Sequence record: DRR723986_5272
Reading direction: 5' to 3' (one strand)
Length of the DNA stretch: 62,213 nucleotides
Below the pieces are notes generated by a model that saw nothing but the letters and a program-made list of their open reading frames with translations, searched no databases and was not told the origin of the DNA. Positions within the stretch are counted from its first letter, which is position 1; each line of letters starts with the position of its first letter. The position numbers and the translations under genes were made by a program. Shown piece by piece: positions 2,993 through 42,662 of the stretch.

Positions 2993-3739
2993 TCAGGGGC
3001 GCATAAACTGGCCACCATCCACGTTCATGATATGCCCGGTAACCCAGCTGGCTTCATCGCTGAGCAGGAACAGGGCAGCATTGGCCATATCCTCGGGCTT
3101 GCCCAGGCGCTTGATCGGCATGCTCTTGATCATTTCCCGGGCGTAATCACCGGCGGTTTTCTCCAGCGCCCCGGTCTCCGTTGGCCCTGGCGCGATGGCA
3201 TTGACCCGGATATTGCGCCAGCCCAACTCATTGGCCAGCGACTGGGTAATACCGTTGACCGCGAGCTTGGCCACCCCGTAGAAACCGGTGCTCATCCAGG
3301 CCGCGGTGGAGGACTGGTTGATAATCGCGCCGCCGCCCCCGGCGGTCATGGCATCCACCACCGCGCGGGTCATGATCAGGCAGCCGTGGGCATTAACCCG
3401 CATGAAGCGTTCCAGGTAATCCATATCGACGGTGAGATAGCCCTCGATGCGCATGTCACCGAAAATCGCCGCGTTATTGATGAGGTAATCGATGCCCCCG
3501 AAAGTGGCAACGGTTTCTTCGGCGCACCGGGTCGCCGAGGCCTCGTCGCCAACATCGGTTTTCACAAACAGTGCGCTGCCGCCGGCGGCGGTGATATCCG
3601 CCGCTACCCGCTGCCCGTTCTCCTCATTCAGCTCGGCAATCACCACGTTCATACCCTGCGCGGCGCAGCTGCGTGCATAGGCCTCGCCAATCCCGCCGCC
3701 GGCCCCGGTGACAATCAGTGTTTTACCCGTGAAATCCAT
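2993..3739 (-). CDS. SDR-family oxidoreductase (Rv0769-like)
   Basis: TGAGGGIG, NNAA, NQSSTAAW, YGVAK motifs. Confidence 0.9.
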   Translation of the reverse strand: MDFTGKTLIVTGAGGGIGEAYARSCAAQGMNVVIAELNEENGQRVAADITAAGGSALFVKTDVGDEASATRCAEETVATFGGIDYLINNAAIFGDMRIEGYLTVDMDYLERFMRVNAHGCLIMTRAVVDAMTAGGGGAIINQSSTAAWMSTGFYGVAKLAVNGITQSLANELGWRNIRVNAIAPGPTETGALEKTAGDYAREMIKSMPIKRLGKPEDMANAALFLLSDEASWVTGHIMNVDGGQFMRP

Positions 3740-3757
3740 GTGCGGTGCTCCTGCGTG

Positions 3758-4528
3758 TCAGATCTTGAGTTTTGGTGAAAGGCGATTCGGCCGGACCTCG
3801 AGCAGGTCCACCGCTGTCCCGGCCGGCTGCTGCAGGCAGTAAACGACCGCGTCGGCCACCTGCTCCACTTCCATCCCGGTGTCCATGTGTGGCCCGGTGT
3901 CGTGCCAGGCGTTGAGGCCTGCGCGCAGCGCGGATTCGTCCCAGCCGTCCGAGAACGTGGTCCAGGCGCCACCGGGCCGGATGCAGCTGACGCCAACCCC
4001 GTCCGGCTGCAACTCTTCCCGCAGGTCACGGGTGAAGCGCTCGACCGCCGCCTTGCTGGCGGCGTAAATCGACAGGTGACTCATTTCGTCGTAGTGCCAG
4101 GCGGACGCTGACGACACGTTGATGATGCGCGGATCCGGGGCGCCGCGCAGCAGCGGAATAGCCGCCTGGCTAGCGAACACGGTGCCGAGAAAGTTGGTAT
4201 TCACCTGCAATACGACCTCGGCGGGCACCAGGGCCTCAACCGCGTTGGGTCGCGCCAGGCCGGCGTTATTGACCAGGGCGTCGAAGCGACCAAAGGCATC
4301 GCGCAGCGCTTCCAGCGCGCCTGCCGTTGCCTGTGCATCGGCAACATCAACCACAAAACCCCTTGCTCGCTGTTCACCACCGAGCTCCGCTACCGCCGCC
4401 TCCAGGGCCTCGGATGAGCGGGCCAACAGCCCGACCCGGGCCCCCGCCGCCACCAGGTGGCGGGCAATGGCCAGACCAAAACCCCGGGATCCACCGGTAA
4501 TCGCTATCACACTGTCGCGCAATTCCAT
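3758..4528 (-). CDS. SDR-family oxidoreductase (possibly Rv0765c-like)
   Basis: TGGSRGFG, NNAG, YAASK motifs. Confidence 0.88.
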   Translation of the reverse strand: MELRDSVIAITGGSRGFGLAIARHLVAAGARVGLLARSSEALEAAVAELGGEQRARGFVVDVADAQATAGALEALRDAFGRFDALVNNAGLARPNAVEALVPAEVVLQVNTNFLGTVFASQAAIPLLRGAPDPRIINVSSASAWHYDEMSHLSIYAASKAAVERFTRDLREELQPDGVGVSCIRPGGAWTTFSDGWDESALRAGLNAWHDTGPHMDTGMEVEQVADAVVYCLQQPAGTAVDLLEVRPNRLSPKLKI

Positions 4529-5994
4529 CAGGCAACACCGATCGCGATCGTCTTGGTCTCAAGGTATTCCTCAAAGCCCTCGCGGCCCATTTCCCGGCCA
4601 ATACCGCTCTGCTTGTAGCCGCCGAAGGGGGCATCCGCCGCGTAATAGTTGCCGCCATTAACGGTCACGGTGCCGGAGCGCAGGCGACGCGCCACGGCCA
4701 GGGCCCGCTCCTCGCTGGCTGACCACACCCCGGCGGACAGGCCGAAATCACTGTCGTTGGCGATGCGCACTGCATCGTCCTCGTCGTCGTAGGCGATAAC
4801 CGACAGCACCGGGCCGAAAATCTCTTCCCGGGCGATCGTCATATCATTGGTCACGTCCACGAACACGGTGGGTTCGATGTAGTAACCATGTTCCAGCTGT
4901 GCCGGCGTGCCGCCGCCCAGCAGCAGGCGCGCGCCCTCCGCCTTGCCTTTCTCGATGTAGGACAACACCCGGTCGCGCTGCCGGGCATTGACCACCGGGC
5001 CCATGATCTGGCTGTCCGACTCCGGGTCACCGTACTCGATGAACCCGAAATACGCGGGCAGTAACTGTTCGACCTCCGCCTGCCGGGACCGCGGCACCAG
5101 CAGCCGGGTGTGGATTGCACAGCCCTGCCCTGCATGGAAACACACCGCGAGGCAGCTCAGCAGGCTCTGGGACAGGTCGGCGTCGTCGAGCATGATATTG
5201 GCCGATTTGCCGCCCAGTTCCAGAAACACCTTCTTCACGGTCTGGGCCGCCAGCGCCATGATGCGCTTGCCGACAGCGGTCGAGCCGGTAAAGGAAATCA
5301 TATCGACCCGCGGGTCACTGACCAGCTGCTCACCGAGCTCGCGGGGATCACTGGCTGTTATCACGTTGAACACGCCCGGCGGGATATCCGTGTGCTCGGC
5401 CACGATGCGACCGAGCATGGTCGCCGACCAGGGCGTATCCGGCGCCGGCTTGAGCACCACGGTGCAGCCCGCCGCCAGCGCGGGTATGCACTTTGCGAGA
5501 TTAATCTGCAGCGGCACGTTCCAGGGAGTGATACAGCCCACTACCCCGATTGCTTCCTTCTCCACCAGTCGACGGCTCTTCTGGCCAAGCGGTTCTGCGA
5601 TGCCGAGGTCGCGGCTCCACTGGAACTGCGGCAGCTGTTCCAGGGTGTAGTCGATGAAGCCAATCGGCACATCACACTGCGGCCCGCTGGCGCCGCAGAT
5701 ACCGAGCGGCGCGCCGGTCTCGGCGGAGATCATAGCGCGCAGCTCGTCCTGCACGGCCAGTAGCCCGTCGCGCAGCTGGGTCAGGCAATGCAGGCGGAAG
5801 GCGTGATTGGTCGACCAGTCTGTGCTGTCAAAGGCGCGGCGGGCGGCAGCTATGGCCTGCTCCATATCCTCGGGAGTCGCATCGGCCACGTGGCCAATCA
5901 CTGCCTCGGTCGCCGGCGCAATATTGGGGTAAACGCGGCCGCCGCTGGTGCCAACCAGCTGGCCGTCGATCAGGAGACGGGATTCAGCGTGCAT
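4528..5994 (-). CDS. Aldehyde dehydrogenase (AldA/Rv0768-like subfamily)
   Basis: ITPWN, KPAPDTPW, FTGST, LELGGKS, HAGQGC (catalytic Cys), EEIFGP, PFGGYKQSGIGRE. Confidence 0.93.
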   Translation of the reverse strand: MHAESRLLIDGQLVGTSGGRVYPNIAPATEAVIGHVADATPEDMEQAIAAARRAFDSTDWSTNHAFRLHCLTQLRDGLLAVQDELRAMISAETGAPLGICGASGPQCDVPIGFIDYTLEQLPQFQWSRDLGIAEPLGQKSRRLVEKEAIGVVGCITPWNVPLQINLAKCIPALAAGCTVVLKPAPDTPWSATMLGRIVAEHTDIPPGVFNVITASDPRELGEQLVSDPRVDMISFTGSTAVGKRIMALAAQTVKKVFLELGGKSANIMLDDADLSQSLLSCLAVCFHAGQGCAIHTRLLVPRSRQAEVEQLLPAYFGFIEYGDPESDSQIMGPVVNARQRDRVLSYIEKGKAEGARLLLGGGTPAQLEHGYYIEPTVFVDVTNDMTIAREEIFGPVLSVIAYDDEDDAVRIANDSDFGLSAGVWSASEERALAVARRLRSGTVTVNGGNYYAADAPFGGYKQSGIGREMGREGFEEYLETKTIAIGVA

Positions 5995-5996
5995 AG

Positions 5997-6854
5997 TCAG
6001 GCCTTATTAATAAACATCGGGTAAACCACCTCGCGCAGGCGCTCGGTGGAGGGCAGGGTCACGCCCATCTCCCGCGCACTCTGCAGCGCGCAGTCGAGGT
6101 CTTTCTCGCCGAGACGGCCGAAAGCGCCGAAAATCTCGTCCATCTGCTGCTCCGTGCAACTGGCCGCCAGCGCGTTGCGGTTACTGACGAACTGGAACAT
6201 GGACTCATTCACCACGCCATTGGACTTGCCTACCTCGCGCAGCAGTTCGGCGGACAAGCCAGCCGCTTCTGCCAGACGGGTGGCCTCGGACATGGCCAGG
6301 AATTCGGCGTAGGTCATCACGTTATTGCACAGCTTCAGCAGCAATCCGGCGCCGGTCGGGCCCGCGTGGATAATGCTGTCCGCCGAGGTGGCGAAAACCG
6401 GGCGCGCCCGCTCCAGATCGGCGGCATCGCCCCCGACCATGTAGCACAGGGTGCCCGCTTCAGCGCCCTGGGCGCCGCCGGATATAGCGGCGTCAATCAG
6501 CACCAGGTCACGCTGTTGCGCATCGGCAGCCCATTGCAGCAGGGCATCGCGAGTAACGGTGGAGTGGATTGCCACCAGGGTGCCGGCGGCGGCGTTCTCG
6601 AGTATGCCGTCAGCGCCGTACAGCAGCGCTTCCACCTGGGCGTTATCGCGAACACAGATGCCGATGTGGCTGCACTGCCGGGCCAGGGACGCGACGCTGT
6701 CGTGGGACCTTGCACCCAGGGCGGCAAGTTCTTCCACCGCGGGGGTATACACATCGAAGACGTGGGCATTGAGTCCGTCACGGATCAGGTGGCGCGCCGA
6801 AGGCTTGCCGATATTACCGAGGCCAATGTAACCAACCTCATGTACCTGCTGCAT
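5997..6854 (-). CDS. NAD(P)-dependent oxidoreductase, beta-hydroxyacid dehydrogenase family (Rv0770-like)
   Basis: GYIGLGNIG, DAAISGG, KLCNN, GEKDL; GGGAG RBS before ATG 6854. Confidence 0.88.
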   Translation of the reverse strand: MQQVHEVGYIGLGNIGKPSARHLIRDGLNAHVFDVYTPAVEELAALGARSHDSVASLARQCSHIGICVRDNAQVEALLYGADGILENAAAGTLVAIHSTVTRDALLQWAADAQQRDLVLIDAAISGGAQGAEAGTLCYMVGGDAADLERARPVFATSADSIIHAGPTGAGLLLKLCNNVMTYAEFLAMSEATRLAEAAGLSAELLREVGKSNGVVNESMFQFVSNRNALAASCTEQQMDEIFGAFGRLGEKDLDCALQSAREMGVTLPSTERLREVVYPMFINKA

Positions 6855-6900
6855 AGCGTGTTCTCCCATCGAGGGCCAGCATCGAGCGCCGGGTGACCCG

Positions 6901-6964
6901 AGTCTAGAAATGCCCGCATTTTATGTCAAGCGTGTTTGACTATTAGTCAACTGCTACTTACTAT
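6901..6964. promoter_or_regulatory. Overlapping divergent promoters with two tandem operator sites
   Basis: Minus: TTGACA (6929-6924), 17 bp, TAGACT (6906-6901). Plus: TTGACT (6936-6941), 17 bp, TACTAT (6959-6964). Sites GTCAA-N6-TTGAC (6925-6940) and GTCAA-N6-CTTAC (6946-6961). Confidence 0.75.
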
Positions 6965-6970
6965 TTCGCC

Positions 6971-8020
6971 ATGAACAAGGCAGTGACCGCCAACAACGCT
7001 CACCATCAGGCCATGGCGCGGTACCGCGACAATGCGGCTCGCCACCTGCTGGGCGTTTCTCGCCACTGCCAGGCGACCATTATGCATCGGCTGTCCGTGG
7101 ACTGCGGCCACCGGGCATTGAAGCTCGGCTTCGAACCCTATGTGAGCCTGTTGGCCGCTGGCGACCTGCGCCTCAGTGAGCTGTCGAGCGCGCTCGGGGT
7201 CTCGCGCCAGGCCGCCCAGCAAACGATCGACGCGATCGAAGCCGCCGGTTACCTCACCCGCGGCACGGATCCCGCCGATGGCCGGGCCAAGCGCATTGCG
7301 CTGACTACCCGCGGCTGGCAATTGATCGAGGACGGGCTGCAGGCGGCGCAACAGCTCGAACAGCACTACGGCTCGGTGGTGGGCGCCGCCGAACTGGCCG
7401 CCGCTACCGATACCCTGCGCCGGCTGGCACAGGCCCTGGCGCTACCCTTACAGGACGCTGAGGCCAACGGTGCTGCTGCCCCGCTATCGGCGCTGCTGCC
7501 GCGGGTGAAAGACCACGTGATGCACCGCCTGATGGCCCTGACGGTGGCGCGCGGACACCCCGCGCTGAAGCTGTCCTTCGGCCAGGTACTGACCCTGATC
7601 GGCCCCGAAGGTGGCAGCATCCAGCATATTGCCCGGGTACAGGGCGTGAGCAAACAGGCCATCAGCGCGATTGCGGTGGAACTGGAGCGACTCGGCTACC
7701 TGCAACGCGAGACCGATACCCGGGACGCGCGCCAGGTGGTACTGCAGTTCAGCCCGGCCGGTATCGAGCTGATCGCCGACTCGGTCGCCAGCGTAGCGGA
7801 GCTGGAAGACGAATACGCCGACCTGCTGGGCCGGCAGCGATGGAACCGCGCTAAGCGCGTTATCGAGCGCCTGTATCAGGCACTCGAACTGGAACAGGAT
7901 ATTTTCAGCGCGGCACCCGCGCAGGATATCAGGGCCCTGGCTTACCAGCTCCGCCGCCAGCTCGGCGGTCGCAGTGCCAGGGCGCTGGGTGAATTATTAC
8001 TGACGGGCAACCCCGTTTAG
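6971..8020 (+). CDS. Tandem (two-domain) MarR-family transcriptional regulator
   Basis: Two internal wHTH repeats, each GHxALKLxF...GVS(R/K)QA...GYLxR..D..D.R. Confidence 0.88.
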   Translation: MNKAVTANNAHHQAMARYRDNAARHLLGVSRHCQATIMHRLSVDCGHRALKLGFEPYVSLLAAGDLRLSELSSALGVSRQAAQQTIDAIEAAGYLTRGTDPADGRAKRIALTTRGWQLIEDGLQAAQQLEQHYGSVVGAAELAAATDTLRRLAQALALPLQDAEANGAAAPLSALLPRVKDHVMHRLMALTVARGHPALKLSFGQVLTLIGPEGGSIQHIARVQGVSKQAISAIAVELERLGYLQRETDTRDARQVVLQFSPAGIELIADSVASVAELEDEYADLLGRQRWNRAKRVIERLYQALELEQDIFSAAPAQDIRALAYQLRRQLGGRSARALGELLLTGNPV

Positions 8021-8029
8021 AGGATCGAC

Positions 8030-8755
8030 ATGACTGAACAACTGGCAACACTTCTCGAACACTACAGCTGGCAGGGCTCGCTGCTGTGCCTGGCGGGGAT
8101 TATCCTGCTGACCAAGGTGGGCAAGGCGCTGGTATTTCGCGTTCCCGCCTTTGCTGAATCCAAGCGGCTGAACCGCGTGCAGGACAAGCAGAAACTGGCC
8201 AAGGACAAGTACCCACCCATGGTGAAGGCGAGCCAGAAGATCGGCCTGTACTGCAACATCGCCTTCTTCACCGTGGTACTTCCCTTCTGCGTCACCCTCG
8301 AACTGACCAACTGGTGGCTGATACCGCTGCACATAGTGGCTATCCTGATGTTCTATGATTTTTTCTACTACCTGATGCACCGCTTCTGGTTCCACGGCCA
8401 GGGCAAGATGCGCCAGGTGCACGCGGTACACCACCAGGCGCGCAAACCAACCTACATCGATGCGCATTACGTACACCCGACGGAAACCTTCCTCGGCCTG
8501 ACACTGTTTTTTGCCTCCATCGCCGTCATGGCGGCGTTCTTCGGCCCGTTTCACGTGGTAACGATTGCCGTGCTGTACGTGCTCTATGTCCAGCTCAACC
8601 AGATCAACCACACGCTGATCGAGCTGCCCTACTTCCCGTTCCGCACCCTGACCTGGATCACCGCCAAGCACCACAAGCACCATGAGAATATGCATAAGGG
8701 CAACTACGCAACGATTACCCTGCTGTACGACAAGCTGTTCGGCACTTTTGACTGA
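8030..8755 (+). CDS. Sterol desaturase / fatty acid hydroxylase family membrane diiron enzyme
   Basis: His boxes HRFWFH, HAVHH, NH, HHKHH; GNYA...DKLFGT; TM helices. Confidence 0.9.
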   Translation: MTEQLATLLEHYSWQGSLLCLAGIILLTKVGKALVFRVPAFAESKRLNRVQDKQKLAKDKYPPMVKASQKIGLYCNIAFFTVVLPFCVTLELTNWWLIPLHIVAILMFYDFFYYLMHRFWFHGQGKMRQVHAVHHQARKPTYIDAHYVHPTETFLGLTLFFASIAVMAAFFGPFHVVTIAVLYVLYVQLNQINHTLIELPYFPFRTLTWITAKHHKHHENMHKGNYATITLLYDKLFGTFD

Positions 8756-8773
8756 AGCGCAAGGAAACGACTC

Positions 8774-9160
8774 ATGAGCGACAAGACACGGCGCCAGATT
8801 GGCGAGGAAATGATTCGGGATGTGTATGCCGGTGATGTGATAGTCCCGCCGGAGGGTTATGCGTTTACCGACGTCATGCTGGAACAGCTGTTTGCCGAAC
8901 TATGGACCCGCGACACCCTGTCCATGCGCGACAAACGTATCCTGCTGATCGGCATCATTGCCGAAAAAGGCGAGCCCACCACCATGAAGATCCAGGTGAA
9001 GGCGTCCCTGAAGCGCGGTGAGATGACGCCGGATGAGGCGCGCGAGCTGTTGCTGTTCATTGCCCAGTACGCGGGCTATCCGCGGGCTGCCTCCATGCTG
9101 GCGCCGATAGAAGAGGCCATCGCCGAATTCCAGCAGCAGGCAAACGGGGACGCCAGCTGA
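8774..9160 (+). CDS. Carboxymuconolactone decarboxylase (CMD/AhpD-like) family protein (Rv0771-like)
   Basis: LFAELWTRDTLSMRDKR...YAGYPRA motif. Confidence 0.85.
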   Translation: MSDKTRRQIGEEMIRDVYAGDVIVPPEGYAFTDVMLEQLFAELWTRDTLSMRDKRILLIGIIAEKGEPTTMKIQVKASLKRGEMTPDEARELLLFIAQYAGYPRAASMLAPIEEAIAEFQQQANGDAS

Positions 9161-10592: not shown

Positions 10593-11498
10593 ATGAAGAA
10601 CGCACAGGCATCGCTGCTCCTGGTCGCCGCCCTGCTGGCCAACACAGGGCAATCGCAGGAGTTGACCCCCAGGGCTTTCTGGCCGGCTCCAGAGGGCACC
10701 CGCGTCGCTACGGTTGGCCTGGCCCACACCTCGGGGGACATCGTGCCGGACCCCTCCCTGCCCATCACCGGGCTGGATTCCAGTATTAGCTCGGGCTTTA
10801 TCGCCTTCCGCCAGACCACCGGCCTGTTCGGACGCACCACCAATCTCATCGTCGAAGTCCCCTATGCCAGCGGTAACACCAGTGCCAGCCTGCCCGAACT
10901 CGGCACCCTGGAGCGTGACTACCAGGGCATTGGCGATGTCGCCGCCACCATGTCGGTGAACTTTCTCGGAGCGCCATCCATGGACAAAGCGGCCTTTGCG
11001 GATTTGCGCCAGAACCCGCGCCCCCTGCTGGGCGGCAGCCTCAAAGTTGTGGCACCAACTGGCGACTACGACAGCGACCGCCTGATAAACGTAGGGGCGA
11101 ATCGCTGGGCGGCCCGGGCGGAACTCGGTTTCATGGCGGTGCTCAATCCCAAGTGGTTGCTCGAGTTAGAGGTTGGCAAGTGGTATTTCCAGGATAACGA
11201 TGACTATCTCGGCAAGACCCGGGAGCAGAAGTCGATTAGCTCTGTGGAAGCGCACCTGGTGCGCCGCTTTTCGCCGGGCTTCTGGATGTCGCTGGATGCG
11301 ACGGGCTATCGCGGCGGTCGCTCGACCTTTGACGGCAGGCGACTCAACGACCTGCAACGGGACTCGAAGCTCGGCGCGACCCTGGTCTTCCCATTCGCGC
11401 GCAAGCACGCGGTGCGGCTGTCCTACGCCAATGGCTCGGCCAATGACTCCGACGAGGAGTTCGACATCTACTCGATCAGCTATCAGCGGGTTTTCTAG
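10593..11498 (+). CDS. Outer-membrane beta-barrel 'transporter' (phenol MetA-degradation-like family)
   Basis: Signal peptide, QELTPRAFWPAP, APTGDYD...NVGANRW, C-terminal YQRVF. Confidence 0.75.
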   Translation: MKNAQASLLLVAALLANTGQSQELTPRAFWPAPEGTRVATVGLAHTSGDIVPDPSLPITGLDSSISSGFIAFRQTTGLFGRTTNLIVEVPYASGNTSASLPELGTLERDYQGIGDVAATMSVNFLGAPSMDKAAFADLRQNPRPLLGGSLKVVAPTGDYDSDRLINVGANRWAARAELGFMAVLNPKWLLELEVGKWYFQDNDDYLGKTREQKSISSVEAHLVRRFSPGFWMSLDATGYRGGRSTFDGRRLNDLQRDSKLGATLVFPFARKHAVRLSYANGSANDSDEEFDIYSISYQRVF

Positions 11499-18485: not shown

Positions 18486-19484
18486 CTAATCGGGCTTGCT
18501 ACCCGGCGCCGGGTCTTCCGGATCGGCGGCGGCAGGCGCAGCCGGCTCGACATCATCAGCAGCTGGAACCTCCGACGCGCCAGGTTGCGGGGCGCCGCCC
18601 ACACTGCCGGCGGCGGCCATCGGCCGGGGCGGACGCGGCAACAGCATGGACACTGAGTCGATCACCCGCTGGTAGTCCGGCCGACGCTCCAGGCTGCGCT
18701 TTTCCATCATCGGAATGCTGGCAAAGACGAACATCACCGTCATCGCCAGGATGCCGAGCCCGTGCCAGTACCAACCCTGCGGGTAGGCCGCCAGCCCGAA
18801 CAGGAACAAACCCAGCCAGAAGCCCAGCTCACCCAGATAGTTGGGATGCCGCGACCAGGCCCACAGGCCCGAGGCCAGGTGCTCTCCTTCCCGGCGATTG
18901 CGAATGAAATCGTGCAGTTGAAAATCCGCGGTCATCTGCAGGGTAATCGCGGAAAAGGTAACGATCAGCGCCAGAATATCGATCCAGGAGAAAGGCTGCT
19001 CTCCCAGGCAGTAGACCGCGTAGACCGGCAACAGCCCGGCAAAGACCTGCAGGGTGGGAAACAGGTGGACGCCGAAAAGGTCCGTCAGCAGTTCCCAGCG
19101 CGGGGCCTTGTCGCGCAACATCTGGTAGCGCCAGTCCTCATGCTGCAACCCCTCCCAAAAATAAGCCCAGTTCAGGGTCAGGCGCGTCGCCCAGTACAGC
19201 ATCAGACCCATAACCAGCAGCTCACGCAGGGCCGGTGCCTCGCTACTGCCAACCGCCAGCCAGTACAGGGCAATAAACGGTGGGATCACCGTCCAGTACG
19301 CGTCGTAGAAACTGGAGTTCCCATAGAAGCGGCTGAACAGGAAGATCACCAGGGTGGCCACAATGTCGGCAAAAAACGCCTTTGCCAGCGGCCCCCCGTC
19401 CAGTGCGTACAGACTGGCGCCGCCCAGGAACAGCGCCACCACATAGGCGATCGTGATTCGTAACAGCCCTTCTGCCTTGGTCAT
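18486..19484 (-). CDS. DUF1295 / steroid 5-alpha-reductase-like membrane protein
   Basis: NSSFYDAYW, EDWRY, ADFQL, GLWAWSRHPNYLGE. Confidence 0.85.
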   Translation of the reverse strand: MTKAEGLLRITIAYVVALFLGGASLYALDGGPLAKAFFADIVATLVIFLFSRFYGNSSFYDAYWTVIPPFIALYWLAVGSSEAPALRELLVMGLMLYWATRLTLNWAYFWEGLQHEDWRYQMLRDKAPRWELLTDLFGVHLFPTLQVFAGLLPVYAVYCLGEQPFSWIDILALIVTFSAITLQMTADFQLHDFIRNRREGEHLASGLWAWSRHPNYLGELGFWLGLFLFGLAAYPQGWYWHGLGILAMTVMFVFASIPMMEKRSLERRPDYQRVIDSVSMLLPRPPRPMAAAGSVGGAPQPGASEVPAADDVEPAAPAAADPEDPAPGSKPD

Positions 19485-19697
19485 AGCGACCTCCCGTTTT
19501 TTATCCTCGCGTGCCGCCCCGGTCCCGGAGCTGCGATCATCGCGCCCCTACCACCGCTGACGGGTTTTCAGGGCGCCTAGGTTGGGACCTCAACCCGCAC
19601 GATGTCAAATTATCGGCGCGCTTGCTATTCTCCCATAACAGCAAGCCACAGGAGGCTGAGTTCGCCCGACCGACCCAGGGGGGCGAGCCTGTTCACG

Positions 19698-20885
19698 ATG
19701 ACCGAGGCATTCACCCGATTCCACCAGACGAGGCTGGCCGAGCGCCTGCAGGAAAGTGACGCAGCGGAAATTGCCCGGGTCGCAGCAGGTATTGGCTCAC
19801 TGGGTTTCAGGCTCAGCGATGATGGCAGTTGCGTCAGCTATTACCCGGAAGACGGCGCACTGCGCATCGCCGCAGACGCCGGTGCCGACACCCTGGTCGA
19901 CCTGAGCTATGCCAACTGGCAAGGCATCGTCAACGACGTGGAGACCGCCGCAGCCCTGATCTACGGCGACCGACTGGGGCAGGAATGCCGCGGCGACCTG
20001 GGACGCTTTATGCTGTGGGAACCCCTGCTGCGCAGCCTGTATACCGGCATGCCGCTGTTTCCCTCCGAAGGCCAGCTGGCCCTGAGGGACAGTGCCGGCC
20101 AGGCCATCGATCCGAGCCGCCATTTCGACCTGCTGCACGATGCGCCGGACGCCATGCGTGAGTACCTGGACCTGAGCGGCTACCTGCTGTTGCGCTCGGT
20201 GTTCTCCGCCGAGGAAACCGCGCGCCTGAAGGCCGCTGGTGAAGCCCTCCGCGCCGCTGCCAGGGCGGACGACAAGGCCAGTTGGTGGGGCAAGGATGCG
20301 GCGGGTAACGATGTGGTCACCCGGGTGCTCAACGGCGGTAGCCATCCGGACCTGCGAGCGCTGGCGAGCGACCCACGGATCGCCGCTATGCATCGGCTGA
20401 TGCCTGCGGGACTCAAGGCCGAAAACCCGGAGAACACTGACGCCATCACCGTGCTGTTCAAGACACCGGAGATGGTACAGGGGCTGTCGGACCTGCCCTG
20501 GCACCGCGACTGCGGCATGGGAGGCCACGCGGTGATGTGTCCGGTCATCAATATGAGCATCTACCTGGAGGACGCGACCGCCGCCTCGGGAGAGCTGCGC
20601 TTCCTGCCCGGGTCCCACCGTTATGCCTGCCCGACACCGGATGCCCGTGCCGGCATCTCGGTACCCGCCCGGACCGGCGATGTCACCCTGCACTACGGTG
20701 ACGTCATGCACGGCGCGCCGGCACCGAGCTCCAGCGAAGGCCCGTTCCGGGCCAGCGTACTGATGTCATTCAAACCGGATTTCGATAATCACCGCGGCGA
20801 GCGGCACTATAACGACGTGCTACTCAAGGATGGTGACGGACACGTGTCTTCCATGCCCGGCACCCGGATACCCGACGCCGGCTGA
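19698..20885 (+). CDS. Phytanoyl-CoA dioxygenase (PhyH) family Fe/2-OG dioxygenase with N-terminal SCP2-like extension
   Basis: WHRD, GELRFLPGSH, GDVTLH...MH facial triad; the N-terminal domain assignment is tentative. Confidence 0.75.
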   Translation: MTEAFTRFHQTRLAERLQESDAAEIARVAAGIGSLGFRLSDDGSCVSYYPEDGALRIAADAGADTLVDLSYANWQGIVNDVETAAALIYGDRLGQECRGDLGRFMLWEPLLRSLYTGMPLFPSEGQLALRDSAGQAIDPSRHFDLLHDAPDAMREYLDLSGYLLLRSVFSAEETARLKAAGEALRAAARADDKASWWGKDAAGNDVVTRVLNGGSHPDLRALASDPRIAAMHRLMPAGLKAENPENTDAITVLFKTPEMVQGLSDLPWHRDCGMGGHAVMCPVINMSIYLEDATAASGELRFLPGSHRYACPTPDARAGISVPARTGDVTLHYGDVMHGAPAPSSSEGPFRASVLMSFKPDFDNHRGERHYNDVLLKDGDGHVSSMPGTRIPDAG

Positions 20886-22284: not shown

Positions 22285-23979
22285 ATGTCCAAGGAAACCC
22301 TGTCCATCGCGATTACCGGCGCCGGCGGCGCCGGGGTCATTTCCTGCGGTGACCTGCTGCTCAAGGCCTGGGCCCGCAGCGGCGGCCGGGGTTTGCTGCG
22401 CAAGGCCTTCGGCCCGCAGATCCGCGGCGGCGAGGCGGCGGCACTGCTGAAACTCACCCGCGATGAGGCCTATACCGCGGCCAGCGACTACCAGCTGATC
22501 GTCGCCCTGGACTGGGTCAACTTCGGCCGTTTTGAAGATGAGATCCGTGCCGCGGCGGATGCTGTTGTGGTGTGTGACGACGTCGAGGCCATGCCGGAGT
22601 CGCTCCAGTCTCTGGCGCGAGCAGACCTGCCCTTTCAGCAGCTCGCGGCAGCCAGCCACCCCGAGGGCCGGGTCAACATGCTGGCGGCCGGCGTACTGGG
22701 GCGCTACCTGGATATTCCCCGGGACACCCTGATCGACTGCGCCCTGGCGCGGCTGGCGGGCAAGGCCGAGACCTACCGGGAAGCCGCAGCCGCCTGCATC
22801 ACGGCAGGCTACGAGCACCGCCTGGACTGCCCCTGGCAAGCGCCCGCCAGAACCGCCGAAAACGCCTGGTGCCTGACCGGCAACCAGGCCGCCGGCTTCG
22901 GCGCCTTGCAGGCCGGTATCCGCTTCGCCGCGGCCTATCCCATCACACCCGCCTCAGACGCCCTGGAGTATCTGGCGGGTGGCCTGGAGGCCCTGGGTGG
23001 CCACCTGATACAGGCTGAGGACGAGCTGGCGGCTATCAACATGACTATCGGCGCGGCCTTCGGCGGAGTCCCGTCCTTCACCGCGACCTCGGGGCCCGGA
23101 CTTGCGCTGATGAGCGAAAGTATCGGTCTGGCGGTAGCCAGTGAAACCCCGCTGACCGTATTGAACGTCATGCGCGGCGGCCCCTCCACCGGCATCCCGA
23201 CCAAGTCGGAACAGAGTGACCTGAACATCGCCCTGCACGGCCTGCACGGCGACGCACCGCACCTGGTACTGGCACCGCTGGATATCGCCGACTGCGCCTT
23301 CACCACCGGCTGGGCTGTCGCCTTGGCCCAGCGGCTGCAGGCACCGGCAATTGTCCTGTCTGACCAGTTCCTCGGGCAGTCCACGGCAGTGGTCTCCGAA
23401 CCCCGCCGCCCACCGATTCCAGACGCCGCTCCATCGGTTGCCGACGACAATGACTACCTACGCTACCGGCTGACTGACAGCGGGGTATCCACCGTGGCCC
23501 ATCCCGGGGACAAAGACGCCCGCTACACCGCCGACGGGCTGGAACATAACGAGCGCGGCACGCCTTCGGCGCGGGAGTCCGACCACCGAAACCAGCTGGC
23601 AAAGCGCAGTCGCAAGCTGACAACCTTTGACTATGGTGCTCACTGGGCGAGGATCGAGGGTGCCGGGGACATCGCCCTGGTCTGCTTCGGTTCAGCCAGC
23701 GCCGCGGTCGCCGAGGCCAGCGCCCGGCTGGCCGCAGATGGCCTGCCGGTACGCACAGTTGCGCTGCGCCTGCTCGCACCTCTGCGTGTCGACGAACTGA
23801 CGACAGCATTGGCCGGCTGTACGCGGATCATCGTGGTGGAACAAAACCATGGCGCCCAGCTCTACCATTATCTGCAGGGCCCGATCAGGCACGACCTGGA
23901 AAGCATCGCGATTCCCGGCCCGGTGCCTCTGACAGCATCCATCATTACCGATGCCATCACCGGCAGGGAGGCCGCATGA
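22285..23979 (+). CDS. korA: 2-oxoacid:ferredoxin oxidoreductase alpha subunit (gamma-alpha fusion)
   Basis: GAGGAG, PQIRGG, YPITP, QAEDE, ATSGPG, RGGPSTGIPT, GLEH, VEQN; substrate specificity not determined. Confidence 0.9.
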   Translation: MSKETLSIAITGAGGAGVISCGDLLLKAWARSGGRGLLRKAFGPQIRGGEAAALLKLTRDEAYTAASDYQLIVALDWVNFGRFEDEIRAAADAVVVCDDVEAMPESLQSLARADLPFQQLAAASHPEGRVNMLAAGVLGRYLDIPRDTLIDCALARLAGKAETYREAAAACITAGYEHRLDCPWQAPARTAENAWCLTGNQAAGFGALQAGIRFAAAYPITPASDALEYLAGGLEALGGHLIQAEDELAAINMTIGAAFGGVPSFTATSGPGLALMSESIGLAVASETPLTVLNVMRGGPSTGIPTKSEQSDLNIALHGLHGDAPHLVLAPLDIADCAFTTGWAVALAQRLQAPAIVLSDQFLGQSTAVVSEPRRPPIPDAAPSVADDNDYLRYRLTDSGVSTVAHPGDKDARYTADGLEHNERGTPSARESDHRNQLAKRSRKLTTFDYGAHWARIEGAGDIALVCFGSASAAVAEASARLAADGLPVRTVALRLLAPLRVDELTTALAGCTRIIVVEQNHGAQLYHYLQGPIRHDLESIAIPGPVPLTASIITDAITGREAA

Positions 23980-24818
23980 ACCAGCCCGCCGTGCTGAAGG
24001 CCAAAGAATTCAAGTCCAGGGTTAAGCCGATCTGGTGTCCGGGCTGCGGCCACTTTTCGGTACTCAATGCCATCACCAAGGCGATGGCGGCACTGGCTAT
24101 CGACCGGAACGATACGGTGCTGGTCTCCGGGATCGGCTGCTCGTCACGGCTGCCGGCCTACATTGACAGCTACGGCTTTCACGGCGTCCATGGGCGCGGG
24201 CTGGCCATCGCCCAGGGTCTCAAAGTCGCTCGACCGGAGCTGACCGTGATCGCCCTCGGCGGTGACGGCGACGGCTTTTCCATCGGCGGCAACCACTTCC
24301 TGCACGCCTGCCGGCGCAACGTGAATATCGTGTACATCGCCATGGATAATGCGGTGTACGGAATGACCAAGGGACAGGCCTCCCCCACAAGCCCTAGCGA
24401 CTGGGATCACAGCAAACTCACACCCCATGGACCCGGCGTGCGACCCTTCAAGCCCGCCGCGGTGGCGCTGGCCTCCGGCGCGCCCTGGATAGCCCGGGGC
24501 TACTCAGGCAATCCCAACCAGATGGCGAAACTGATTGCCGAGGCAATCGCGTTCGACGGCTTCAGCTTCCTCCACGTGCTCTCGCAGTGCATCACCTACT
24601 GCCCGGAACAGACGGACTGGAAGAACATTGTGCACGAACGCTCAGAACCCGCCATCACCAGCACTGAAGACGCGGCGCGGCTGTTCCTGGCCGAGGACGG
24701 TTTCGAGACCGGCCTGCTCTATCGGCAGGCGAGACCAGGCTGGCCACCGCAGGCGGCAAAACCTGATGATGACGCCGCGGCGCTGGCTGCCCTGGCAGCA
24801 CGCTTTGGAGCAAGCTGA
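23976..24818 (+). CDS. korB: 2-oxoacid:ferredoxin oxidoreductase beta subunit (TPP-binding)
   Basis: WCPGCGH, SGIGCS, HGR, GGDGD..SIGGNH, DN..YGMTKGQ, QCITY; ATGA overlap with alpha. Confidence 0.9.
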   Translation: MNQPAVLKAKEFKSRVKPIWCPGCGHFSVLNAITKAMAALAIDRNDTVLVSGIGCSSRLPAYIDSYGFHGVHGRGLAIAQGLKVARPELTVIALGGDGDGFSIGGNHFLHACRRNVNIVYIAMDNAVYGMTKGQASPTSPSDWDHSKLTPHGPGVRPFKPAAVALASGAPWIARGYSGNPNQMAKLIAEAIAFDGFSFLHVLSQCITYCPEQTDWKNIVHERSEPAITSTEDAARLFLAEDGFETGLLYRQARPGWPPQAAKPDDDAAALAALAARFGAS

Positions 24819-25327
24819 TGTTGAATGCAAAGCTGGCGGACTTTCTCGCCCACTCGGTGGAACTGGAAAGCGAGGCGCGGGAGCGCTATACGGAACTCGC
24901 CGACGCCATGGCCGCACACAATAACCGTGAGGTTGCCCGTTTCTTTCAACGGATGGCCACCGAGGCCAGCCATCACCTTGCCGAGGTGGAAGAAATCGTC
25001 GGTAGCGCGCGCCTGCCCGTACTGCAGGCCTGGGATTACCAGTGGCTCGACCCCGAAGCCCCGGAAAGCGCCAGTTATGAAGCCGTACACTACCGGATGA
25101 CCCTGGGTGACGCGATGCGGCTGGCGCTGAAGAACGAACGCGATGCCGAGGCCTATTACCGGCACATGGCCGACACCAGTAACGATCAGGAAACCCGGCG
25201 GATCGCTACCGGCTTCGCCGAGGAGGAAAAGCGCCACGCCGCCGCGCTGGAAGAGATGATCCGGGGATTAGATACGGAGCCGGCACATGGCCGCCTGGAC
25301 GATGACGAGCCCAACATGCCCGAGTGA
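24818..25327 (+). CDS. Rubrerythrin/ferritin-like diiron protein (no rubredoxin domain)
   Basis: Paired E...ExxH motifs (EASH, EKRH) in a four-helix bundle; TGATG coupling to korB. Confidence 0.85.
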   Translation: MLNAKLADFLAHSVELESEARERYTELADAMAAHNNREVARFFQRMATEASHHLAEVEEIVGSARLPVLQAWDYQWLDPEAPESASYEAVHYRMTLGDAMRLALKNERDAEAYYRHMADTSNDQETRRIATGFAEEEKRHAAALEEMIRGLDTEPAHGRLDDDEPNMPE

Positions 25328-41196: not shown

Positions 41197-41278
41197 CAGC
41201 GTTCTCCCTCGCGGTTACAGTGCTGGTCCTACTATAGTTCATGCCCCGGGGAATGCGCGCCCCTGCACCCGCCCCGGG

Positions 41279-41343
41279 GTGACGCTAAAAGTATACTAAT
41301 GTATACTTTTGAACTTGGCGGCGTTACAGTAGAGCGCCATAAT
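41279..41343. promoter_or_regulatory. Perfect palindromic operator and promoters between aldB and the P450 gene
   Basis: AAAAGTATAC-TAAT-GTATACTTTT (41287-41310); plus-strand GTGACG-17-TATACT and TTGGCG-17-CATAAT. Confidence 0.7.
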
Positions 41344-41386
41344 CCGGCGACCCAAATCGGACCGCCAGGCAAACAGGAGACCCCGC

Positions 41387-42628: not shown

Positions 42629-42662
42629 GCCGGGCCTTGCGGGACAGCGGAGTCAACTACCG

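Follow-up and report, generated by a model that had tools for sequence, protein, structure and literature searches.

Four enzymes encoded in the window (the whole 62,213-nucleotide stretch of DNA analysed, from record DRR723986_5272), namely an aldehyde dehydrogenase (ALDH), a short-chain dehydrogenase (SDR1), a HIBADH-like protein and a CMD protein, were shown by sequence computation to be the orthologue of an actinobacterial block lying beside cyp51 and cyp123. Comparison of loci likewise showed that in proteobacteria an FA_hydroxylase (FAH), a second SDR (SDR2) and a tandem MarR fill the places of the actinobacterial CYP123, Rv0765c-type SDR and TetR. Our best reading is that the seven genes make up one MarR-controlled unit, which would oxidise and decarboxylate a methyl or hydroxymethyl group of an exogenous sterol or steroid-like lipid. 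Since the same four-enzyme set occurs here with a di-iron hydroxylase, not a P450, it offers a testable idea of how this long-unexplained set may act on sterols. Judged from the nearest loci, the host was probably a marine, Halieaceae-type gammaproteobacterium.

Gene layout and the divergent control region

ORF calls and domain matches over positions 2993-9160 confirmed the gene layout of an earlier sequence-only reading, giving a divergent pair of compact operons, HIBADH-like > ALDH > SDR > SDR on the (-) strand and tandem-MarR > FAH > CMD on the (+) strand, with 1-18 nt gaps or overlaps between the genes of both. The motifs quoted in that reading (AARRAFDSTDWS, KPAPDTPW, HAGQGCAI, GGIDYLINNAAI, NQSSTAAW...FYGVAK, AIHST, GEKDL, VYAG and WTRDTLSMRDKR) were all present in the translations. 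The tandem MarR (6971-8020, (+) strand) is a single chain of 349 aa with two MarR/winged-helix domains, the MarR_2 and MarR models each matching two stretches. It adjoined the module in 55/70 gammaproteobacterial loci anchored on ALDH and 64/80 anchored on FAH; none was found among 80 actinobacterial loci, a TetR gene standing in its position there. The control region between the operons (6870-6970, no strand) holds an operator-like palindrome, TTGACTATTAGTCAA, at 6936-6950. The putative operator, TTGAC-N5-GTCAA with at most one mismatch, was found in 45 of the 47 intergenic regions homologous to this one, compared with 0.5% of shuffles, and would be common to both divergent operons; the palindrome shares bases with the -35 hexamer of the (+) promoter-like site and abuts the (-) promoter-like site. 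We postulate that, at TTGAC-N5-GTCAA, the tandem MarR keeps the two promoters repressed as long as it has no ligand bound.

Orthology with the actinobacterial cyp51/cyp123 locus

Four of the proteins had been likened to Rv0768-Rv0771 of Mycobacterium tuberculosis (aldA-Rv0769-Rv0770-Rv0771 in a table of PMC10470581, available in part). This likeness was tested indirectly, through NCBIfam models and the block of Mycobacterium angelicum, with M. tuberculosis itself outside the loci fetched, and in that form it was borne out: ALDH, SDR1, HIBADH-like and CMD were reciprocal best hits of a contiguous actinobacterial ALDH>SDR>HIBADH>CMD block. In M. angelicum the block adjoins an Rv0764c-type CYP51, a CYP123-like P450, TetR and purD, and the neighbouring P450 matched PDB entry 1e9x ('CYTOCHROME P450 51-LIKE RV0764C') at 838 bits. 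The cluster gene was the best hit of the window's ALDH, SDR1 and CMD in 3/3 actinobacterial genomes, with wide margins for SDR1, and of HIBADH-like in 2/3. In reverse, each of the four M. angelicum proteins found its best hit in the Halieaceae cluster by a wide margin in 3/3 genomes, making CMD a reciprocal best hit of the actinobacterial cluster CMD in 3/3 genomes in each direction.

The ALDH (4528-5994, (-) strand), a predicted NAD(P)-dependent enzyme of Rv0768 (aldA) type, had TIGR04284 ('aldehy_Rv0768') as its top NCBIfam model at 705.7 bits, below the cut-off of 775, with hydroxymuconic-semialdehyde and phenylacetaldehyde dehydrogenases among its secondary matches. Its translation holds HAGQGCAI and LELGGKS, which we take to be the catalytic Cys and catalytic Glu stretches, and the proteobacterial clade of the ALDH tree (100% SH-aLRT) lay next to the actinobacterial clades. 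SDR1 (2993-3739, (-) strand), a classical short-chain dehydrogenase and Rv0769-type orthologue, passed NF005853 (340.1 bits, cut-off 303); its top PDB match was 3qiv at 5e-84, the second-best reaching 8.5e-44. It is optional in Halieaceae, occurring in 28/70 ALDH-anchored and 21/80 FAH-anchored loci. HIBADH-like (5997-6869, (-) strand), an Rv0770-type member of the β-hydroxyacid-dehydrogenase family (NAD_binding_2, 128.2 bits; NAD_binding_11, 42.9 bits), scored under every NCBIfam equivalog cut-off, the top sub-threshold models being tartronate-semialdehyde reductase and 3-hydroxyisobutyrate dehydrogenase; the GAGLLLKLCNN in its translation presumably matches the family's catalytic-Lys motif. 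The Rv0771-type CMD (8774-9160, (+) strand; PF02627 at 31.8 bits, cut-off 23) is free of cysteine, reached 43.1 bits against the PcaC model TIGR02425 (cut-off 155.7) and had as its top PDB match 4g9q (1.6e-17), named 4-carboxymuconolactone decarboxylase.

Among the 80 actinobacterial loci, SDR1-type genes occurred in 77, HIBADH in 74, CMD in 71, CYP123-like P450s in 70, TetR in 69, Rv0765c-type SDRs in 68 and CYP51-like genes in 57. FAH occurred in none of them and was found in Proteobacteria, so the survey bore out the expected alternation of P450 and 'desaturase'. Set against the actinobacterial locus (M. tuberculosis Rv0762c-Rv0771; Rhodococcus erythropolis KB1), the window's cluster shares the aldA-Rv0769-Rv0770-Rv0771-type block and lacks CYP51, CYP123, ferredoxin, the Rv0765c-type SDR and TetR; FAH, a different SDR and the tandem MarR are present instead, CMD now follows the hydroxylase, and the ALDH lies under the TIGR04284 cut-off. 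SDR2 (3758-4528, (-) strand; Pfam adh_short, 156.6 bits), a classical SDR confined to the proteobacterial form of the cluster, recurred in 52/70 ALDH-anchored and 58/80 FAH-anchored related gammaproteobacterial loci. The suggestion that it may correspond to Rv0765c was rejected, as it is merely 27% identical to the Rv0765c-type SDR and had no match at E≤1e-28 across three actinobacterial genomes.

The pathway of the actinobacterial locus had been described as unresolved, which needs updating in view of recent reports, as far as the available excerpts go. CYP123 of M. abscessus hydroxylates progesterone and 11-deoxycorticosterone, the products being tentatively assigned as hydroxylated in the D-ring (C16/C17) and not oxidised at a C4-methyl (PMC12799577), and a cluster of P450s, ferredoxin, SDR, TetR, ALDH, NAD(P) oxidoreductase and CMD in R. 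erythropolis KB1 was reported to be induced by 17β-oestradiol (PMC12975502).

The membrane hydroxylase and sterol-type neighbours

FAH (8030-8755, (+) strand) matched PF04116 at 75.2 bits (cut-off 31), the membrane di-iron hydroxylases of the 'sterol desaturase' superfamily, and had no NCBIfam family match. Nine His residues in HX4H, HXXHH, NXXNH and HXXHH were invariant across 34 homologues, in agreement with the earlier view of a His-box di-iron enzyme. Its AlphaFold model (pLDDT 92.8) had the Scs7p hydroxylase domain as top structural match (Foldseek probability 0.91; VIA Z 5.6, rmsd 3.5 Å, 145 residues). FAH was found in 58/70 ALDH-anchored gammaproteobacterial loci, and ALDH lay within 8 kb of FAH in 59/80 FAH-anchored loci, 4 of which were contig-limited. 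In 121 sampled Halieaceae genomes, of which 42 carried the module as an accessory feature, ALDH and FAH occurred together in 41, ALDH alone in 1, FAH alone in 7 and neither in 72; the proposed co-conservation of FAH with the cluster thus held in both anchoring directions and at genome level. It is scarcely credible that the two operons are functionally unrelated neighbours. In its favour, the two are transcribed separately from opposite strands, and 20-60 kb separate FAH from ALDH in a handful of genomes (Parahaliea, Sediminihaliea), but such a reading sits poorly with this co-occurrence, with the shared operator, with a CMD gene that lies behind FAH here yet within the ALDH block in actinobacteria, and with the single co-directional string ALDH>CMD>FAH in alphaproteobacteria.

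A domain scan of window ORFs of at least 100 aa detected no ferredoxin domain in any of them, nor any P450 closer than some 30 kb to the cluster, as the sequence-only reading had it; the sole P450 among them (41387-42628) was not CYP51-like. No electron donor for the hydroxylase was encoded near the cluster. CYP51-family genes were present in 25/42 ALDH-positive and 1/79 ALDH-negative Halieaceae genomes, and KshA_C-domain oxygenases in 42/42 and 46/79, respectively, both counts being uncorrected for relatedness and genome completeness. CYP51 lay within 10.2 kb of ALDH in 13 of these 25 genomes and within 10 kb in only 8/70 ALDH-anchored gammaproteobacterial loci; 17/42 module-bearing Halieaceae genomes, including the window's two closest relatives (G053 and G002), gave no CYP51 match. 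The P450 adjacent to the module in a Haliea locus had CYP51 structures as its top PDB matches, and a gammaproteobacterial locus (L067) reads ALDH...CYP51-ferredoxin fusion>3β-HSD-like. A 3β-HSD-type gene was found in 8/80 related loci, and alphaproteobacterial and Opitutia loci carried extra Steroid_dh/steroid-5α-reductase-like (170 bits), 3β-HSD-like and GMC oxidoreductase genes. A recurrence of predicted steroid-type neighbours (CYP51, 3β-HSD-like, Steroid_dh and KstD-like) is supported. Squalene/oxidosqualene cyclase domains were found in 0/121 Halieaceae genomes; therefore, any sterol would be exogenous. Cholesterol supports growth of a Halieaceae isolate, according to the available part of PMC5790920.

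Proposed function and alternatives

The earlier interpretation stood in its four-gene orthology, the co-conservation of FAH, the alternation with P450s and the steroid-type neighbours, and fell in taking SDR2 as the Rv0765c counterpart. We regard the chances as evenly balanced that exogenous sterols or steroids are the substrates of the module and that FAH is the oxygenase that starts the sequence. FAH would hydroxylate a methyl group, an SDR would convert the alcohol to the aldehyde and the Rv0768-type ALDH would yield the carboxylate. The β-hydroxyacid-dehydrogenase-family enzyme could then oxidise an adjacent hydroxyl, producing a β-keto acid whose decarboxylation would be catalysed or assisted by the CMD-family protein, and the ketone might be re-reduced, perhaps by the other SDR. 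The concrete case we favour, following eukaryotic ERG25/26/27 logic, is loss of the C4-methyl adjoining the 3-hydroxyl, which would ready methylated sterols for ring degradation; taken alone, this C4-demethylation detail is tentative and rather doubtful. Several points speak against the sterol reading, among them the lack of a nearby electron donor, the module-bearing genomes that gave no CYP51 match and the D-ring products of CYP123. No enzyme of the window's cluster was steroid-specific by any curated model, characterised HIBADH-family enzymes use small hydrophilic acids, and MarR regulators are commoner as phenolic-acid sensors. Oestradiol, the reported Rhodococcus inducer, carries no methyl group at C4 or C14. 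Functions within the CMD family are diverse.

In eukaryotic sterol C4-demethylation (ERG25/SMO, ERG26, ERG27), a single oxidase performs the three oxidation steps, and decarboxylation falls to a 3β-HSD-type enzyme. The module resembles it in an initiating oxygenase of the same FA_hydroxylase superfamily, in the proposed order of methyl, carboxyl, β-keto acid, CO2 loss and ketone reduction, and in the occasional 3β-HSD-type gene of related loci; it differs in that a separate SDR, ALDH, β-hydroxyacid-dehydrogenase-family enzyme and CMD would split the work, and in that the host, judged by the missing cyclase, makes no sterols. Methylococcus SdmAB is a bacterial sterol C4-demethylase that occurs alongside a CYP51-ferredoxin fusion, of the same type as the fusion near ALDH in L067. 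SdmA is a Rieske oxygenase with a biosynthetic role, unlike the His-box di-iron membrane enzyme here, in an organism without a cyclase. Operons of the XylMABC and CymA-B-C type also pair a membrane His-box di-iron hydroxylase with alcohol and aldehyde dehydrogenases that take a methyl group to the carboxylate, but their hydroxylases are of the AlkB/FA_desaturase family, come with a reductase of their own and use aromatic or alkane substrates, and these operons lack a β-hydroxyacid dehydrogenase or CMD partner.

It is possible, though unlikely, that the module instead degrades a phenolic or aromatic compound, such as an oestrogen-like A-ring or side group or algal/lignin-type phenolics, with FAH attacking a benzylic methyl or the ring, SDR and ALDH producing the acid, CMD acting as in aromatic lower pathways and MarR sensing the phenolic. 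The MarR-type control, the secondary ALDH matches and a glyoxalase/dioxygenase-superfamily gene close to the module in one alphaproteobacterial locus would suit such a role, as would a CMD family best known from the protocatechuate branch, with weak top NCBIfam matches of PcaC type and the name of 4g9q. The domain scan, however, found no ring-cleavage dioxygenase or ring-hydroxylating oxygenase in the window's cluster, the PcaC model was far under its cut-off, the recurrent neighbours were CYP51, 3β-HSD-like and Steroid_dh rather than aromatic-pathway genes, and we know of no FA_hydroxylase-family enzyme that acts on aromatics. In the excerpts available, p-hydroxybenzaldehyde shifts expression of the M. 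tuberculosis operon (PMC10470581) and the reported Rhodococcus inducer, oestradiol, is itself phenolic (PMC12975502), both of which fit a phenolic substrate.

We consider it highly improbable that ALDH, HIBADH-like and CMD use a small hydrophilic 3-hydroxy acid or semialdehyde, freed as a fragment when FAH or a P450 performs O-dealkylation or ether cleavage, leaving the other product to the steroid-type neighbours. The sub-threshold HIBADH-like models point that way, and the FA_hydroxylase superfamily includes an alkylglycerol monooxygenase that cleaves ethers and yields an aldehyde; all small-acid models were nevertheless far under cut-off, the conserved core lacks any kinase, transporter or CoA-ligase that would serve a small acid, and nothing points to a specific ether substrate. 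Somewhat less improbable, but still quite unlikely, is a stress or membrane-remodelling unit in which the hydroxylase modifies the cell's own lipids (acyl-chain, ornithine-lipid or carotenoid) and the dehydrogenases detoxify lipid-derived aldehydes. The FA_hydroxylase superfamily covers lipid, sphingolipid and carotenoid hydroxylases, and the one relative with a solved structure, Scs7p, is a fatty-acid 2-hydroxylase. The mycobacterial operon is, moreover, discussed under aldehyde stress in the part available of PMC10470581. Such housekeeping is at odds with the accessory distribution of the module, with the pairing of the same four enzymes with P450s in actinobacteria and with the co-occurrence of CYP51 and KshA-like genes, and the dedicated repressor-type control fits an inducible substrate.

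Gene layout and shared control region

The module comprised seven closely packed genes in two divergent operons (window 2993-9160). On the minus strand, a HIBADH-like protein of the β-hydroxyacid-dehydrogenase family (5997-6869) was followed by an aldehyde dehydrogenase (ALDH, 4528-5994), SDR2 (3758-4528) and SDR1 (2993-3739), with gltX 72 nt beyond. The plus strand encoded a regulator of 349 aa containing two MarR domains (6971-8020), then a membrane protein of the FA_hydroxylase family (FAH, 241 aa, 8030-8755) and a 128-aa CMD-family protein without cysteine (8774-9160). All motifs quoted in the sequence-only reading were found in the translations of these genes. Nearest relatives of the ALDH locus were almost all Halieaceae (OM60/NOR5 group) or unclassified marine gammaproteobacteria, and DNA near-identical to 2993-9160 occurred in metagenome runs of marine plankton and seawater, drawn from five studies. 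At 8001-9000, across FAH and CMD, G+C content fell to 0.56, compared with 0.62-0.67 around these genes.

The 101-nt spacer between the operons contained a perfect palindrome, TTGACTATTAGTCAA, at 6936-6950. Across the HIBADH/MarR spacers of 46 related loci and the window's own (47 regions), TTGAC-N5-GTCAA was exact in 28 and had one mismatch in 17 more (45/47), at a constant distance to the MarR start in homologous spacers; shuffled sequence gave a match this close (no more than one mismatch) in 0.5% of cases. By consensus matching, one promoter-like site directed towards the MarR operon shared its -35 hexamer in part with the palindrome, and another, directed towards the ALDH operon, lay immediately next to it. 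The simplest reading is that it is a putative operator common to both operons, and that this shared element ties them together. Two MarR/MarR_2 stretches in one chain, together with the conservation of the putative operator, placed the regulator in the MarR family. With both domains on one chain it is in effect a covalent pseudo-dimer, and this form was kept across Halieaceae loci.

Correspondence with the actinobacterial Rv0768-Rv0771 block

In actinobacteria, the Rv0768-Rv0771 block (ALDH>SDR>HIBADH>CMD) lies beside cyp51 and cyp123. What CYP51 and the genes around it do in bacteria without sterol synthesis, above all mycobacteria, has been a standing question since the gene's discovery. Using an actinobacterial ALDH above the TIGR04284 cut-off (845 bits) as seed, we kept 80 loci from Mycobacterium, Mycolicibacterium, Rhodococcus, Nocardia, Actinomadura and others, with M. 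angelicum and others standing in for M. tuberculosis, which was absent. The contiguous string was the rule among these loci (SDR1 type in 77/80, HIBADH in 74/80 and CMD in 71/80, several misses being short contigs), while FAH and tandem MarR were found in none of the 80. Identity to the window proteins was about 55% for ALDH, 52-59% for SDR1, 30-44% for HIBADH and 29-42% for CMD. In the region upstream of this string, a CYP123-like P450 was detected by tblastn in 70 of the 80 loci, TetR in 69, an Rv0765c-type SDR in 68 and CYP51-like P450s in 57, with Pfam confirmation on seven loci. Gene order in M. angelicum was CYP51, (SDR), P450 and TetR, then ALDH, SDR, HIBADH, CMD and purD, and its CYP51 matched PDB 1e9x ('CYTOCHROME P450 51-LIKE RV0764C') at 838 bits; gene names for Rv0762c-Rv0771 are tabulated in PMC10470581.

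The sequence-only reading had noted a close resemblance of the ALDH, SDR1, HIBADH-like and CMD proteins to Rv0768-Rv0771. With M. angelicum as stand-in for M. tuberculosis, reciprocal best hits bore this out for the four genes, with a reservation for the HIBADH-like protein. The forward best match was the cluster gene in 3/3 actinobacterial genomes for ALDH, SDR1 and CMD and in 2/3 for the HIBADH-like protein, the ALDH margins being small in two mycobacteria (571 vs 537 bits and 553 vs 534 bits). In reverse, all four M. angelicum proteins matched the Halieaceae cluster first in 3/3 genomes by wide margins (ALDH 544 vs 355 bits). TIGR04284 (aldehy_Rv0768) was the best NCBIfam model of the window ALDH at 705.7 bits, below its curated cut-off of 775, as were the Halieaceae relative G002 (652 bits) and small-genome actinobacterial MAGs (about 727 bits). 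Reciprocal best hits and conserved neighbourhood placed the window ALDH in an Rv0768-type orthologous group wider than that model. SDR1 exceeded the cut-off of the Rv0769-type SDR equivalog NF005853 (PRK07774; 340.1 bits vs 303). Seventy ALDHs were placed in a quick maximum-likelihood tree, whose root was insecure with very long outgroup branches; in it, proteobacterial sequences and one Opitutia sequence formed one clade (SH-aLRT 100%) adjoining a Myxococcota sequence and actinobacterial clades. The suggested pairing of the other SDR with Rv0765c failed: SDR2 was 27% identical to the Rv0765c-type SDR and had no match at E<=1e-28 in three actinobacterial genomes.

A four-enzyme core that pairs with either of two oxygenase types

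FAH belonged to the FA_hydroxylase superfamily (PF04116; 75.2 bits vs a cut-off of 31) and had a predicted structure of pLDDT 92.8. Nine histidines (H117, H122, H131, H134, H135, H194, H214, H217 and H218), in HX4H, HXXHH, NXXNH and HXXHH boxes, were invariant across 34 homologous sequences of 37-92% identity. A PDB sequence search returned no relative. As to the sterol-acting ERG25/SMO (methyl oxidase) and ERG3 (C5-desaturase) branches of the superfamily, no NCBIfam family or curated sub-family model matched, and source names and protein atlas clusters gave only the generic 'sterol desaturase family'.

FAH is part of the module on four counts, namely ALDH-anchored loci, FAH-anchored loci, the genome level and gene order. 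Among 70 ALDH-anchored gammaproteobacterial loci, FAH was present in 58, tandem MarR in 55, CMD in 50, HIBADH in 60, SDR2 in 52 and SDR1 in 28. Within 8 kb of FAH in 80 FAH-anchored loci we found ALDH in 59 (four misses being contig-limited), CMD in 63, MarR in 64, HIBADH in 62, SDR2 in 58 and SDR1 in 21; in Parahaliea and Sediminihaliea, FAH and ALDH were 20-60 kb apart. At the genome level, where counts describe relatives in the Halieaceae sample and not the window's own genome, 42 of 121 genomes had an ALDH orthologue and 48 had FAH. Both occurred in 41 and neither in 72, leaving one genome with ALDH alone, at a contig end, and seven with FAH alone, four of them at only 41-47% identity. The desaturase is therefore co-conserved with the cluster, as the sequence-only reading had required. 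Gene order agreed: CMD, part of the ALDH string in actinobacteria, lay behind FAH in the window, and alphaproteobacterial MAGs carried HIBADH>ALDH>CMD>FAH on a single strand.

The expected exchange of P450 for desaturase was also borne out, with TetR, CYP123 and an Rv0765c-type SDR in actinobacteria and tandem MarR, FAH and SDR2 in proteobacteria around a common ALDH/HIBADH/CMD(/SDR1) core. Four genes known as CYP51 neighbours thus form a portable core, found in marine Gammaproteobacteria, Alphaproteobacteria and a Verrucomicrobiota MAG, that accepts a His-box di-iron hydroxylase in the P450's stead. Cultured Halieaceae whose loci hold the cluster include Parahalioglobus pacificus KCTC 23430 (L034), Sediminihaliea albiluteola F7430 (L016) and Haliea alexandrii LZ-16-2 (L207). 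The window cluster differed from the mycobacterial cyp51 locus as a whole in that CYP51, CYP123, ferredoxin and TetR were all absent, and among scanned ORFs of 100 aa or more no P450 or ferredoxin adjoined it. The actinobacterial locus was already known, if unexplained, and the proteobacterial form is a variant of it. Among the papers listed by our literature searches, none linked an FA_hydroxylase gene to the module or described the proteobacterial form, with its His-box hydroxylase, different SDR and single-chain double MarR.

A further variant without FAH or MarR occurred at three loci (L008, L012 and L013), where CMD preceded another, distant ALDH, a kinase of the EcKL/APH type and a family-III CoA-transferase; a 3β-HSD-like gene, a P450 of the CYP51 family and a small ORF of no assigned family were present as well in L008 and L013. 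Elsewhere in the window, a second oxidation set (39676-43598) consisted of an ALDH (39676-41196, minus strand), a divergent P450 (41387-42628, plus strand) and a Zn-alcohol dehydrogenase (42663-43598, plus strand). At 22-23% identity, this P450 was ruled out as the missing partner, whether as a CYP51 or a CYP123 orthologue.

Sterol-type neighbours and a candidate route

Outside actinobacteria, too, the module was accompanied by CYP51-family genes, which lay within 10 kb in 8 of 70 gammaproteobacterial loci. At a Haliea locus a CYP51-family P450 and TetR directly adjoined CMD-FAH-MarR, in Sediminihaliea albiluteola such a P450 was inserted between MarR and HIBADH, and in two lower-GC gammaproteobacteria without FAH it occurred with a 3β-HSD-like gene. 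One gammaproteobacterial MAG locus (L067) ran ALDH > SDR > luciferase-like monooxygenase > SnoaL > SDR > CYP51-ferredoxin fusion > 3β-HSD-like. In the PDB, both the Haliea P450 and the fusion P450 matched CYP51 structures best. The fusion, a CYP51 with C-terminal ferredoxin, was followed by the 3β-HSD-like gene (L067:15076-17954), 4 kb from the Rv0768-type ALDH on its downstream side; the fusion's P450 part was 57% identical to mycobacterial CYP51, and PDB 6mcw ('Cytochrome P450 51', 551 aa) aligned over the ferredoxin part. Two loci added KstD-like flavoproteins, an old-yellow-enzyme fusion and a longer FAH paralogue, and in alphaproteobacterial and Opitutia loci the core was surrounded by genes for a Steroid_dh protein (PF02544, 170 bits) and a GMC oxidoreductase, along with a 3β-HSD-like gene.

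CYP51-family genes were present in 26 of 121 Halieaceae genomes, 25 of these among the 42 ALDH-positive ones and the remaining one FAH-positive (raw counts, ignoring kinship and completeness), and 13 lay within 10.2 kb of ALDH. KshA_C-domain Rieske oxygenases, a domain not specific for steroid 9α-hydroxylase, occurred in 42/42 ALDH-positive and 46/79 ALDH-negative genomes (Fisher 5e-8, again ignoring kinship and completeness); the 88 positive genomes (of 121, G043-G163) often held multiple copies, with up to 11 matches per genome. A squalene/oxidosqualene cyclase domain was found in none of the 121, with the positive control recovered in Bacillus subtilis. This rules out a biosynthetic role of the module and indicates that these bacteria make no sterols or hopanoids of their own, so that the sterol substrates of CYP51 must be external. 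In mycobacteria, likewise, CYP51 must meet external sterols. Growth on cholesterol is reported for a sponge-derived Halieaceae isolate (PMC5790920), and OM60 genomes are listed as predicted steroid degraders (PMC4810484). For CYP123, the M. abscessus enzyme is described as converting progesterone and 11-deoxycorticosterone to mono-hydroxylated products (PMC12799577), and a Rhodococcus enzyme as yielding 16-hydroxy-oestrone (Ye et al. 2022, as cited in PMC12799577). In Rhodococcus erythropolis, 17β-oestradiol is reported to induce a cluster comprising P450s, ferredoxin, SDR, TetR, ALDH, NAD(P) oxidoreductase and CMD (PMC12975502).

We put at about even the chance that the module acts on an exogenous sterol or steroid with FAH as initiating oxygenase. 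What was a vague steroid-associated locus can then be cast as a defined enzymatic hypothesis, in which FAH would hydroxylate a methyl group to an alcohol, an SDR would oxidise this to an aldehyde and ALDH would convert the aldehyde to an acid. The HIBADH-like enzyme, which matched the family-level domains NAD_binding_2 and NAD_binding_11, might next oxidise a hydroxyl β to the new carboxylate. That arrangement is the defining substrate pattern of the family, one member of which, 6-phosphogluconate dehydrogenase, then decarboxylates. The resulting β-keto acid would be handled by the CMD-family protein, and return to the alcohol may fall to the second SDR. Such a pattern would exactly suit a 3β-hydroxy-4-methyl sterol, eukaryotes begin C4-demethylation with an FA_hydroxylase-family protein, like the module's FAH, and CYP51, recurrent next to the module, removes the other nuclear methyl group of sterols. 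C4-demethylation specifically is nevertheless a tentative and much less likely proposal. Two points count against the sterol route: 17β-oestradiol, the reported inducer of the Rhodococcus erythropolis version of the cluster, lacks methyl groups at both C4 and C14, and the CYP123 products are tentatively assigned as D-ring hydroxylations (PMC12799577).

Further observations weigh against the sterol reading. No enzyme of the window cluster matched a steroid-specific curated model, no electron donor for FAH was encoded near the cluster, and 17 of the 42 module-bearing Halieaceae genomes had no CYP51 match, including the window's nearest relatives, G053 (83% ALDH identity) and G002. MarR and CMD proteins are better known from the breakdown of aromatic compounds, and the module might instead serve a phenolic or aromatic substrate. 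We consider this unlikely; the CMD protein reached 43.1 bits against PcaC (4-carboxymuconolactone decarboxylase, TIGR02425), far below the cut-off of 155.7, and matched the general CMD Pfam domain alone (31.8 vs 23). Nor is it of the AhpD-type alkylhydroperoxidase branch, which has a catalytic CxxC pair, since it lacks cysteine. The top structural match of FAH, by Foldseek and by VIA (Z 5.6), was the fatty-acid 2-hydroxylase Scs7p, though weakly. Modification of the cell's own lipids coupled to aldehyde detoxification seems distinctly improbable. Small-acid metabolism after oxidative cleavage appears more doubtful still, the HIBADH-like protein having scored 152.3 and 162.5 bits against the 3-hydroxyisobutyrate dehydrogenase and tartronate-semialdehyde reductase equivalogs (cut-offs 291.6 and 340.75). 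Beside the co-occurrence of ALDH and FAH across the Halieaceae sample, a chance neighbourhood is barely credible.

Carrying the sterol reading further, the Rv0768-Rv0771-type block could supply the later steps of a catabolic bacterial route for sterol C4-methyl removal, the third such route and one of independent origin, a possibility we hold to be rather doubtful. The methyl hydroxylase would be FA_hydroxylase in proteobacteria and CYP123 in actinobacteria, followed by an SDR and the Rv0768-type ALDH, after which the β-hydroxyacid dehydrogenase would act on a 3-hydroxy-4-carboxy steroid and a CMD-type decarboxylase would complete the removal. Bacteria that make no sterols would thereby strip methyls from exogenous sterols ahead of ring degradation, the candidate substrates being dinoflagellate and algal 4-methyl sterols at sea and, in soil, sterol precursors of plants and fungi. 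The enzymatic route would be new, if shown. If demethylation is the correct reading, pairing a β-hydroxyacid dehydrogenase with a CMD-type decarboxylase would be a new enzyme logic in sterol chemistry and a means of recycling methylated algal sterols at sea, and a C4 route working with CYP51 on the 14-methyl would explain why mycobacteria retain a sterol 14-demethylase.

Several other genes of the window were recorded alongside the module. A Phenol_MetA_deg-family protein (10593-11498), which we take to be a putative outer-membrane channel for hydrophobic compounds, was encoded 1.4 kb past the CMD gene and was absent from all 80 related loci examined. At 18486-20885, a DUF1295 membrane protein lay beside a 427-aa PhyH-family dioxygenase; the Steroid_dh proteins of two of the compared loci (L071 and L080) also match DUF1295 (Pfam). 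A two-subunit 2-oxoacid:ferredoxin oxidoreductase followed by a rubrerythrin-like protein (22285-25327) would be an unusual pair for an aerobic marine heterotroph.
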